Of a DNA stretch of 5,423 bases, positions 758 through 2,233 are shown one piece after another. Numbering within the stretch: the stretch's first letter is position 1; each line of letters begins with the position of its first letter. Origin of the DNA: a virus (taxonomy: Duplodnaviria; Heunggongvirae; Uroviricota; Caudoviricetes). Both the position numbers and the translations under genes were made by a program. Under the pieces are notes generated by a model, which saw only the letters and a list, made by a program, of their open reading frames with translations, ran no database searches and had not been told where the DNA came from. Location of the stretch: the IMG/VR virus record IMGVR_UViG_2802429220_000009, positions 1 through 5,423 of that record. One strand, 5' to 3'.

Positions 758-767
758 ACTGATGGCA

Positions 768-796
768 TTGCAGATCCCTACACAATGTAATACTAT
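768..796 (+). promoter_or_regulatory. Putative promoter of the toxin-antitoxin operon (-35 TTGCAG, 17-bp spacer, -10 TACTAT), flanked by short inverted-repeat arms
   Basis: TTGCAG at 768-773 and TACTAT at 791-796 with a 17-bp spacer, about 30 nt upstream of the toxin ATG at 825. Inverted-repeat arms AATGTA (784-789) and TACATT (803-808) bracket the -10, as expected for an autoregulated TA operator. Confidence 0.4.
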
Positions 797-824
797 GTGT
801 TATACATTAATAACGGAACAAAAA

Positions 825-1196
825 ATGCGCATTTTTAAAAACGCCTGGTTTGAGCGATTTGCACGCAAAAACAAAATATCCGACCAGTCACTGCGCGAAA
901 TTGTTAAACAGGCTGATAACGGGCTTATCTCAGCAAACCTGGGTAACGGCGTTATCAAGCAACGTCTGCCACGAGTCGGTGGCGGCAAATCTGGCGGTTA
1001 TCGCACAATCATTTTCTATCGCGTCGGCACAAGGGCCTTTTTCGTATATGCATACGCAAAAAATGAACGTGAAAATATAACCGCTACTGAGGAAAGTGCA
1101 TTTCGGAAGGCGGCTCCTCACGTACTCAATCTAACAGATGAACAACTGGCACAACTGATTCTACAGGGTCAGTTTACGGAGGTACCCAATGAGTAA
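825..1196 (+). CDS. Type II toxin, RelE/ParE-superfamily (HigB-like, toxin-first operon), 123 aa
   Basis: Track ORF 762..1196 trimmed to the internal ATG at 825 (MRIFKNAWFERF...), because the predicted -10 lies inside the 5' extension. Contains the motif RVGGGKSGGYRTIIFYRVG, which I recall as typical of RelE/ParE-like toxins paired with HTH antitoxins. The stop TAA 1194-1196 overlaps the next gene's start in ATGAGTAA. Confidence 0.8.
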   Translation: MRIFKNAWFERFARKNKISDQSLREIVKQADNGLISANLGNGVIKQRLPRVGGGKSGGYRTIIFYRVGTRAFFVYAYAKNERENITATEESAFRKAAPHVLNLTDEQLAQLILQGQFTEVPNE

Positions 1197-1506
1197 AAAT
1201 TACCGCAGTGATGCGCTTGCATCCGTACATGAAATGATGGAATCGCTTCATGATATCGGCGCAGTAACGAAACAGACTATGCGAGAATTCGATGAAACTT
1301 GTCTCCAGCCAGCGCCGGTAATGTCTCCGGAAAGGATCCGTGCACTGCGCGAACGAGAGCATCTGTCTCAACCTGTTTTTGCCAGATACCTCAACGTCAG
1401 TAAAAACCTGATATCAGACTGGGAACGTGGTGTAAAACGGCCGGGAGGTGCCGCTCTTCGCCTTCTTTCAGTCGTAGAGAAAAACGGGATACAGGTAATA
1501 TCATGA
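1189..1506 (+). CDS. HTH (XRE-type) DNA-binding antitoxin of the type II TA pair, 105 aa
   Basis: ATG at 1189 with GGAGG 5 nt upstream; 8-nt overlap with the toxin gene. Helix-turn-helix signature in the C-terminal half (SQPVFARYLNVSKNLISDWERGVKRPGGAALRLL). Size and toxin-first order fit a HigA-like antitoxin. Confidence 0.85.
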   Translation: MSKNYRSDALASVHEMMESLHDIGAVTKQTMREFDETCLQPAPVMSPERIRALREREHLSQPVFARYLNVSKNLISDWERGVKRPGGAALRLLSVVEKNGIQVIS

Positions 1507-1522
1507 TACTCCAATACAACAA

Positions 1523-1540
1523 AACCCGCCGAAGCGGGTT
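1523..1540. terminator. Intrinsic terminator between the convergent TA operon and hok; U-tract on the minus strand (hok mRNA 3' end), weaker for the plus strand
   Basis: Stem AACCCGC/GCGGGTT with a 4-nt loop. On the minus strand the loop is the stable tetraloop UUCG and the stem is followed by UUUUGUUGUAUU; on the plus strand the loop is CGAA and no U-tract follows. Confidence 0.55.
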
Positions 1541-1608
1541 AAGTGCGGGTGCGTTGAGGATGCCTGACACATCAGAGGTGGCGAGGGATTTCTCCCTCGC
1601 CTGGTCTC

Positions 1609-1764
1609 TTACTCCTCAGGTTCGTAAGCTGTGAAGACAGTGACCTCCGTCTGGCCGGTTCGGATTCGTACCTCGCAGAGGTCTTTCCTCGTTACCAGTG
1701 CCGTCACAATGACGGTAATACAGATGACGATCAGGGCGACTAACATCGCCTTTTGCTGCTTCAT
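1609..1764 (-). CDS. hok: Hok/Gef-family type I membrane toxin, 51 aa
   Basis: Internal ATG of track ORF 1609..1821 at 1764..1762 with SD AAGGAGA 7 nt upstream. Product MKQQKAMLVALIVICITVIVTALVTRKDLCEVRIRTGQTEVTVFTAYEPEE is near-identical to E. coli HokD/HokC as I recall them (single transmembrane helix, conserved Cys). Confidence 0.9.
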   Translation of the reverse strand: MKQQKAMLVALIVICITVIVTALVTRKDLCEVRIRTGQTEVTVFTAYEPEE

Positions 1765-1821
1765 AGCCTGCTTCTCCTTGCCTTTCGGCGCGTAAGAGGC
1801 TAACCTACATGTGTCTAGCAT
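1609..1821 (-). CDS. mok: Mok-like in-frame N-terminally extended reading frame (70 aa) coupling hok translation
   Basis: ATG at 1821..1819 in frame with hok, adding MLDTCRLASYAPKGKEKQA; this resembles the MokC N-terminus as I recall it (MLNTCR...KEKRAMKQ). GAGG lies 8 nt upstream. Confidence 0.55.
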   Translation of the reverse strand: MLDTCRLASYAPKGKEKQAMKQQKAMLVALIVICITVIVTALVTRKDLCEVRIRTGQTEVTVFTAYEPEE

Positions 1822-1980
1822 AAAATTGGCCTCAGATTAATGTTAGGCGTCTTGCAGGACGCGTAATGTTAACTGGGGCTTTTCTCTGTCTGCCTTACGG
1901 TGGCATGCCCGAGGCAGACAGCCTCAAGCACCCGCAGCAATTCTACTTAACTCTCGCTTTACCGCAAACCGTTTTTACCC

Positions 1981-2009: not shown

Positions 2010-2114
2010 TCAGTTCCCTAGTCGATCCATCAAAAACACAACCAGGCAGTAAACGCCCACAACAGCAATAACAGCCAGCGCACCTTCCATTGCCAGTGAT
2101 ATATCATCCGACAT
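2010..2114 (-). CDS. Small hydrophobic peptide, 34 aa (predicted single transmembrane helix); function unknown
   Basis: ATG at 2114..2112 with a strong SD AAGGAGGG 4-5 nt upstream; stop TGA at 2012..2010. Product MSDDISLAMEGALAVIAVVGVYCLVVFLMDRLGN. Below the length cutoff of the supplied track. Confidence 0.45.
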   Translation of the reverse strand: MSDDISLAMEGALAVIAVVGVYCLVVFLMDRLGN

Positions 2115-2149
2115 ATTCCCTCCTTTGGTGTTAATCCCGGCGAACGTTT

Positions 2150-2233
2150 TTACCCCCACCGACAAATAACATATACTAAAAAAGCGATAGCCATAGCAAC
2201 GCCTGTAATTGCAAATGCTTCAGGCCAGTTCAT
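2150..2233 (-). CDS. Small hydrophobic peptide, 27 aa (predicted single transmembrane helix); translationally coupled to the upstream gene
   Basis: ATG at 2233..2231 overlaps the stop of the 194-aa gene in ATGA; SD AGGAGG 8 nt upstream. Product MNWPEAFAITGVAMAIAFLVYVICRWG, stop TAA at 2152..2150. Confidence 0.45.
   Translation of the reverse strand: MNWPEAFAITGVAMAIAFLVYVICRWG

Follow-up and report, generated by a model that had tools for sequence, protein, structure and literature searches.

Does the minus strand around positions 1520–1960 of the window (the whole 5423-nt stretch of DNA analysed here) carry a complete and regulated type I toxin gene, or only the remains of one, and does the complementarity between the two ends of its predicted mRNA correspond to the fold-back of the hok family? 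Our analysis suggests that the minus strand from about 1518 to 1968 is a complete hok/mok/sok type I toxin–antitoxin cassette in the early region of an Escherichia coli lambdoid prophage, a reading to which we assign a probability of about 0.88. Both hok/sok and the tac/fbi fold-back are textbook material, known from the family and from near-identical loci; the finding holds and is an ordinary one. It carries little weight as a discovery: identical DNA is present in RefSeq as hokD, and the 90%-identical hokW-sokW locus has been characterised.

Genomic setting

A 481-nt region matches E. coli NZ_CM149872.1 (strain HCP4S3_I4) with 100% identity; in this genome, the identical ORF is annotated as 'type I toxin-antitoxin system toxin HokD' (hokD, WP_052977210.1). 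The annotation is limited to the toxin ORF; mok, Sok and the RNA elements are not marked. The prophage context was established from the gene neighbourhood in NZ_CM149872.1 and from a Pfam search on the window ORFs. The locus in NZ_CM149872.1 belongs to a lambdoid prophage, where it is flanked by the replication genes on one side and by the antirepressor/nin/Q genes on the other. Upstream are cII-like, replication (DnaC-like), DUF1627, DUF977 and DUF551 genes; downstream are the antirepressor, RusA, NinH and Q genes. In this prophage slot, the intact hok/sok is arranged tail to tail with a RelE-family/HTH pair. Of 5426 complete E. coli genomes, 3906 have a full-length homologue (at least 80% of the query covered); the number of copies, in genomes that have any, reaches 10, with a median of 2. 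The locus is also found in 101 phage records, mostly of Stx-converting and other lambdoid phages.

Hok and Mok reading frames

The hok toxin ORF (1609–1764, minus strand) encodes a protein of 51 amino acids, MKQQKAMLVALIVICITVIVTALVTRKDLCEVRIRTGQTEVTVFTAYEPEE, and is preceded by the Shine-Dalgarno sequence AAGGAG (1779–1774, minus strand). It is identified by its match to Pfam PF01848 HOK_GEF (2.9e-22; 78.4 bits against a cut-off of 22), which covers positions 1–42 of the 42-residue model, and by the hokD annotation of the identical DNA. With the NCBIfam Hok subfamily model, the score is 46.8 bits, under the 73-bit cut-off; the Pfam match is clear. The mok ORF (70 amino acids; 1609–1821, minus strand), taken from the ORF list, begins at ATG 1821–1819 and is in frame with hok, with a Shine-Dalgarno sequence GAGG (1833–1830, minus strand) 9 nt upstream of the ATG. 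A Hok ORF with an in-frame Mok extension, as reported in the first-pass annotation, is thus borne out. The frame arrangement is the same as that of the annotated mokC/hokC of E. coli K-12, which have a common stop codon and differ in length by 57 nt. In K-12 mokB, by contrast, the frame differs from that of hok; both arrangements thus occur within the family, and judged from these sequences an in-frame mok is normal for this hok subgroup. Local folds around the UACG motif of Tyr47, where a TadA-type hairpin was sought, are weak (−0.6 to −5.7 kcal/mol).

Promoter, leader and ends of the hok mRNA

A consensus promoter scan reported neither the hok nor the Sok promoter, both of which are weak with respect to the consensus, and both were therefore placed by homology and conserved spacing. 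The putative hok promoter (1940–1968, minus strand) consists of the −10 box TAGAAT (1945–1940) and a weak −35 box, TTTGCG/TTGCGG (1968–1962). The −10 box aligns with TATAAT of K-12 hokC and is separated by the six-base spacer TGCTGC from the predicted start, G1933. The six-base distance between the −10 box (TAGAAT, TATAAT, TATATT or TAGTAT) and GGG is kept in all 41 related loci. The Rfam model RF01794 matches the minus strand at 1933–1759 with 115.2 bits (gathering score 59) over its full length (model positions 1–157), and model position 1 falls at 1933. On the basis of this spacing and of the model position, transcription probably starts near G1933. Together with the terminator, these data predict a full-length hok mRNA of about 416 nt (1518–1933, minus strand). 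The UUCG-loop terminator noted at first pass was found by a terminator scan at 1518–1540 (minus strand) as AACCCGC-UUCG-GCGGGUU followed by UUUGUUG, with 7 pairs and a 4-nt loop, and its hairpin also forms in the predicted RNA fold.

RF01794 is named 'sok', yet it models the hok mRNA leader. On the K-12 genome, its matches to hokC and hokB have the same strand and extent as in the window, on the strand of hok, which is not that of the annotated sokC and sokB. Because the model marks the hok-leader strand, automated annotation would misplace the antitoxin, assigning it to the wrong strand and giving it about twice its true length.

The Sok antisense gene

The Sok homologue (1813–1889, plus strand; about 77 nt) was mapped from the ends of the annotated K-12 sokC. 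Aligned end to end with the annotated sokC and sokB, it would start at G1813 and end near 1889. The RNA is predicted to begin with a single-stranded 5' tail, GUCUAGCAUAAAAUUGG, that spans the mok start, and to continue into a long hairpin and UUUUCU. The fold of the 77-nt RNA (−31.5 kcal/mol, z = −5.75) gives the hairpin followed by the U-tract, and the hairpin exceeds that of sokC and sokB by 18 nt. The putative promoter (1778–1806, plus strand), located by alignment upstream of sokC and sokB, has a −35 box TTGCCT (1778–1783), a 17-nt spacer and a −10 box TAACCT (1801–1806). The motif TTGCCT/TTGACC ... GTAAGAGGCTAAYCT is conserved across the loci; it is weak, with 7 of 12 matches to the sigma-70 consensus. 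Among cassettes that are otherwise about 90% identical, the 5' tail of Sok is the most variable part.

Comparison with known systems

The hokW-sokW locus of Sakai prophage 5 (the Stx2 phage VT2-Sakai of E. coli O157:H7) shows 90% DNA identity to the window locus from promoter to fbi. Both loci are prophage-borne, with identical tac (GGGUGCUUGAGG) and fbi (CCUCAACGCACCC) boxes, the same 18-nt-longer Sok hairpin and an in-frame 70-amino-acid Mok/Hok ORF, which is 87% identical to the 70-amino-acid 'gef homolog orf74' of VT2-Sakai. They differ in the Sok 5' tail/mok-start region (CCAAUUUUAUGCUAGAC in the window, CUCAAUCCAUGCUGAAC in hokW-sokW) and at the C-terminus of Hok (TVFTAYEPEE in the window, AVFVDYESEK in hokW-sokW). 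The terminators are also different, since the sequences diverge past fbi. Takada et al. showed HokW to be toxic and sokW RNA to counteract this toxicity; with hokW-sokW, phage release after mitomycin C was about two-fold higher (PMC8621323). The window cassette could accordingly be intact and yet have a role other than plasmid-style post-segregational killing or phage exclusion: with Sok lost on prophage induction, Hok would contribute to lysis and to the release of phage, as reported for Sp5. The location inside a lambdoid prophage and the close identity to hokW-sokW, including tac and fbi, are consistent with such a role. The position in the phage genome is different, however (early region in the window, near the right end in VT2-Sakai), as are the Sok 5' tail and the terminator, and a two-fold effect in one study is thin evidence. 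We regard this role as a candidate, at odds below even; the candidate roles are not mutually exclusive.

K-12 hokD (relF), in the Qin cryptic prophage, is nearly identical to the window in the Hok ORF, the hok Shine-Dalgarno sequence, the 3'-UTR stem-loop, fbi and the UUCG terminator, and both loci have a lambdoid prophage setting, with the immunity/replication genes on one side and Q on the other. The alignment is confined to the part between the hok Shine-Dalgarno sequence and the terminator, both included. Farther upstream, K-12 has relE instead, and the upstream 200 nt of the window are only about 50% identical to the K-12 hokD region. K-12 hokD has relBE directly upstream and is without promoter, tac, ucb, mok and sok, whereas the window has all five. 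The RF01794 search of the K-12 hokD region gave no match, and the relBEF operon arrangement of K-12 hokD (relBE upstream; no leader, mok or sok) does not occur in the window. K-12 hokD is described as inactivated by rearrangement (PMC12214031). The hokD call by PGAP, the closeness of the protein to K-12 HokD and the near identity of the 3' UTR with fbi and terminator might suggest that the window locus is likewise a decayed, decapitated remnant that keeps the toxin ORF and 3' UTR and has lost leader, mok and sok. This reading is very improbable and is refuted at the sequence level by the full RF01794 leader (115 bits) and by the mok ORF, the Sok homologue, tac and ucb, all of which are present in the window with no IS element or frameshift. 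As far as sequence and folding can indicate, all the defining elements are there and uninterrupted, in agreement with the first-pass view of an intact locus. The name 'HokD' suits the protein, not the architecture of the locus. The K-12 type, with relBE in place of the hok leader, is seen elsewhere, the relBE–hok fusion being kept across genera (locus L032 in Kluyvera and locus L028 in Enterobacteriaceae G50).

The leader of K-12 hokC/mokC/sokC (gef) aligns throughout with that of the window, with the same tac (GGGUGCUUGAGG) and with mok in frame, and the start of Sok is at the same position relative to the mok ATG. The alignment with K-12 hokC and hokD proposed at first pass as a check thus gives a leader collinear with hokC and leaves the mok/hok frame and the leader elements undisrupted. 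In K-12 hokC, IS186 is inserted shortly past the stop codon, the point at which homology ends, and fbi has been lost; the window keeps fbi. SokC is 59 nt long, compared to about 77 nt for Sok in the window. In sequence comparison, the window locus has both the leader that K-12 hokD is without, collinear with the hokC leader, and the 3' part in which homology to hokC is lost; it is therefore the complete form of the hokD-type locus. An Escherichia ruysiae locus bridges both forms, with a leader 93% identical to the window and a downstream flank 99% identical to K-12.

The prototype, hok/sok (parB) of plasmid R1, follows the same logic, which in the window is seen by folding only. In R1, the tac/fbi fold-back, the ucb anti-Shine-Dalgarno box, the metastable 5' hairpin, activation by 3' processing and the binding of Sok across the mok start have been described (PMC9841398). 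The R1 copy is on a plasmid and the window copy in a chromosomal prophage. HokW, a close relative of the window Hok, is 44% identical to R1 Hok (PMC8621323). As plasmid hok loci match the window only over about 80 nt (about 79% DNA identity), our comparison is based on the Rfam family model and on K-12 hokB and hokC.

The tac–fbi helix

The first-pass annotation based the fold-back on an exact 9-nt complementarity. The sequences UGCGGGUGC (1936–1928) and GCACCCGCA (1552–1544), both on the minus strand, are indeed exact reverse complements, at the coordinates given there, and no other exact inverted 9-mer pair with a separation of 50 nt or more occurs within 1520–1960. In 2000 dinucleotide shuffles of 1520–1960, however, 19% hold at least one such pair (mean 0.275), and the 9-mer was rejected as evidence by itself. 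With transcription starting near G1933, UGC 1936–1934 is probably not in the RNA; the stretch 1928–1936, assigned in full to the 5' leader, would belong to it only from 1933 on. The stretch 1544–1552 had been taken for the 3' end of the mRNA, which is incorrect, as the box is located just 5' of the terminator hairpin (1540–1518).

The predicted helix is formed by tac (translational activator, GGGUGCUUGAGG; 1922–1933, minus strand), which is the 5' end of the mRNA and was delimited by pair probabilities and covariation, and fbi (fold-back inhibitor, CCUCAACGCACCC; 1547–1559, minus strand), the best duplex partner of tac, at position 49 of the 3' UTR. GGGUGC-UUGAGG (1933–1922) pairs with CCUCAA-C-GCACCC (1559–1547) in 12 bp with one bulged C. 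The fbi box is just 5' of the terminator hairpin. Folding of the transcript, suggested at first pass as the way to confirm the pairing, does so in silico: the minimum free energy (MFE) fold of the full-length RNA pairs both mRNA ends (z = −8.9 compared to shuffles), with tac–fbi ensemble pair probabilities of 0.97–1.0. The duplex of the 12-nt 5' end with the 68-nt 3' UTR has a predicted energy of −21.1 kcal/mol, which was reached by 16 of 5000 shuffled UTRs (0.3%). A search of the whole 5423-nt window on both strands gave no other site at or below −18 kcal/mol save the trivial DNA complement of the 5' end. On these models, the tac–fbi fold-back is real and is the one already described for the hok family; what marks it is the bulged 12-bp helix and not the 9-mer.

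Conservation of the fold-back across related loci

We collected 57 loci encoding Hok relatives from one-genome-per-species contigs and compared the 41 unique loci. The genera sampled include Escherichia, Shigella, Kluyvera, Citrobacter, Photorhabdus, Pantoea, Erwinia and Kalamiella. Leaders were located by RF01794, and the first 13 nt of each were tested for the best partner in the 3' UTR of the same locus. Duplexes were then predicted per locus for its own and for permuted tac/fbi pairings. The best partner of tac is at 3'-UTR position 45–56 in 38 of the 41 unique loci (position 49 in the window); the three exceptions include the IS186-disrupted hokC type (L023-type loci).

Eight sequence variants of tac occur among the related loci, covarying with their own fbi. 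Helix position 4 is U-A in 24 loci, C-G in 11 and U-G in 2; position 12 is G-C in 25, A-U in 12 and G-U in 1. There is one change from U-A to C-G at position 7 (hokB) and one from G-C to A-U at position 11 (locus L051). Most of the loci with C4/A12 are from Photorhabdus; because these form one clade, the independent covariation events are few, at least two at position 12 and one or two at position 4. Pairing each tac with the fbi of its own locus gave more stable duplexes than permuted pairing in every one of 10000 permutations (mean −21.0 versus −18.6 kcal/mol). A chance inverted repeat without structural role, for which one could cite the shuffles that hold an exact 9-mer (19%) and the three of its nine bases that are probably upstream of the transcription start, is extremely improbable in view of the extension to 12 bp, the position conserved in 38 of 41 loci, the compensatory changes at positions 4, 7, 11 and 12, the permutation test (0 of 10000) and the 0.3% of shuffled UTRs that match the energy.

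Predicted structural switch

The structures described here are thermodynamic predictions for the 416-nt RNA and are models only. The upstream complementary box, ucb (AAGCCCC; 1875–1881, minus strand), is the putative anti-Shine-Dalgarno sequence of mok and was located from pair probabilities and the Rfam consensus structure. In the full-length RNA, ucb is predicted to pair with the mok Shine-Dalgarno sequence (GAGG, 1833–1830) with P = 0.99, a pairing also found in the Rfam consensus structure, and tac–ucb pairing has P = 0.0. When the 3' end is removed in silico at or beyond 1553, fbi is partly (residual tac–fbi 0.03–0.04) or wholly gone, the predicted tac–ucb pairing is about 0.9 (0.88–1.0) and that between ucb and the mok Shine-Dalgarno sequence is 0.12 or less. 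The unpaired probability of the target of the Sok tail rises somewhat, from 0.38 in the full-length RNA to 0.46–0.62 after trimming; that of the mok Shine-Dalgarno sequence after trimming varies from 0.02 to 0.86 with the chosen 3' end. In these models, the 5' end takes the anti-Shine-Dalgarno box as its new partner when the 3' end is removed, as has been described for plasmid R1.

The first 30–35 nt folded alone give a local hairpin of 11–13 bp that occupies tac (predicted −18.8 to −21.2 kcal/mol). The partner of tac in this putative transient hairpin of the nascent transcript is GCCUCGGGCAU (1905–1915, minus strand), with the loop UGUCU at 1920–1916. This agrees with the metastable 5' structure that has been described for R1 hok (PMC9841398). 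The 3' UTR contains a stem-loop, GGCGAGGGA-GAAA-UCCCUCGCC (1580–1601, minus strand), in the MFE folds of both the full-length and the shortened RNA. By analogy with R1, where a protective role of the terminal stem-loop has been described (PMC9841398), it is likely to be the 3' protective hairpin of the processed mRNA.

Proposed mechanism and biological role

The mechanism that we propose is the established R1 hok/sok model, with each step for the window allele read from folding and comparison. A constitutive promoter would give an mRNA of about 416 nt from near G1933. In the nascent RNA, the 5' end (tac) would be held in the local hairpin; in the finished RNA, tac (1933–1922) would pair with fbi (1559–1547) just upstream of the terminator. 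This pairing would let ucb (1881–1875) sequester the mok Shine-Dalgarno sequence, and because it is masked, the full-length RNA is proposed to be neither translated nor bound by Sok. Slow trimming of the 3' end would remove fbi, upon which tac would move to ucb and the mok start region would open. The short-lived Sok RNA (1813–1889, plus strand) would then pair across the mok start, and the duplex would be destroyed. Once Sok is gone, translation of Mok would drive that of the overlapping, in-frame Hok, a 51-amino-acid inner-membrane toxin.

[quoted passage not shown] Phage exclusion has been reported for hok/sok of plasmid R1, and it is to that system that the exclusion part of the first-pass proposal, which invoked post-segregational killing and phage exclusion, belongs. 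For Sp5 hokW-sokW, the reported role is phage release (PMC8621323), and the chromosomal hokA, hokB and hokC have been reported without post-segregational killing (summarised in bioRxiv 10.1101/2025.08.07.668861). We consider it conceivable, on balance doubtful, that the replication–nin/Q slot of lambdoid prophages is a site at which toxin–antitoxin systems are swapped and that the variable Sok 5' tail limits cross-talk among the several hok/sok copies of a genome.

For the hokD-type loci of E. coli, the window allele would represent the state of K-12 hokD prior to its decapitation, in which relBE took the place of the leader.

Sequences flanking the hok locus

At the left end of the window, two RNAs are arranged in tandem on the minus strand within 533-721: one is isrK-like (721-645, 73.5 bits), the other a C4 antisense RNA (617-533, 78 bits). 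The antirepressor gene lies directly downstream of the pair, starting near 480 and continuing past the left end of the window; its counterpart in L001, the identical E. coli chromosome region, is a P22AR C-terminal domain protein. The whole stretch looks like an antirepressor control region of the P1/Gifsy type. A type II toxin-antitoxin pair (762-1506, plus strand) is positioned tail to tail with hok. The toxin belongs to the RelE family (PF06296, 3e-46), and the antitoxin, whose gene overlaps that of the toxin, is an HTH protein matching HTH_3, with additional weak MqsA/HigA-like matches. The antitoxin gene ends at 1506, and the U-run of the hok terminator reaches its end 12 nt away, at 1518. 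On the other side, directly upstream of the hok promoter, a small hydrophobic ORF (2010-2165, minus strand) is annotated in L001 as a hypothetical protein of 34 aa; it gave no match in a Pfam search and contains a terminator-like hairpin at 2059-2043.

The Tyr47 codon of Hok

The codon for Tyr47 of Hok (1623-1626, minus strand) is embedded in the sequence UACGAA, as it is in K-12 hokD. In the latter, the site is reported to undergo low-level A-to-I editing by TadA, converting Tyr to Cys, and Cys at position 47 of Hok is thought to be important for toxicity (PMC12214031). Folding predicts only weak local hairpins around the Tyr47 site. The window contains another UACGAA at 1670-1665.

Related hok loci

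The 200 nt upstream of hok were compared in L028, L032, L012, L013, L047, and L056 for the arrangement in which hok has no leader and relBE is located upstream. K-12 is not alone in having this arrangement: it recurs, combined with other Hok sequences, in a Kluyvera locus (L032) and in Enterobacteriaceae G50 (L028), where the flank upstream of hok is 94% identical to the K-12 counterpart; L047 and L056 are copies with a frameshift. Many separate hok loci in the comparison set came from Photorhabdus genomes. In Photorhabdus temperata (L035), two full RF01794 leaders (456-603 and 1085-1233) are spaced by about 630 nt, which suggests tandem hok loci. In Erwinia sp. CGal63 (L053, 150-297) and Kalamiella (L057, 262-289), the hok leader is found about 100 nt downstream of CRISPR-DR4 repeats. 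E. coli-type hok with 93-95% identity is also present in very short contigs labelled Acinetobacter idrijaensis (L022) and Xanthomonas pisi (L031) and in 'Actinobacillus phage vB_Apl-pPE4' (H26); these three records are probably contaminated or mislabelled.

Sok and the hok mRNA leader

Among the otherwise approximately 90% identical cassettes (the window, the prophage cassette hokW, and loci L005-L010), the most variable stretch is the Sok 5' tail region, which coincides with the mok start (window 1813-1829). This variability could reduce cross-talk where a genome carries several copies of hok/sok. The Sok/leader hairpin is extended in the window (~1845-1865): it is 18 nt shorter in sokC and sokB, whereas hokW has the same longer hairpin. 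The Rfam family RF01794, named as the sok antitoxin, matches the window at 1759-1933 (minus strand) and the K-12 hokC and hokB regions at 602-754 (L003, minus strand) and 567-718 (L004, minus strand), respectively. The matches, about 150-175 nt in length, are on the strand of the hok mRNA leader; in K-12, this is the strand opposite the annotated sokC (59 nt) and sokB (57 nt). Annotating directly from Rfam would place the antitoxin on the wrong strand.
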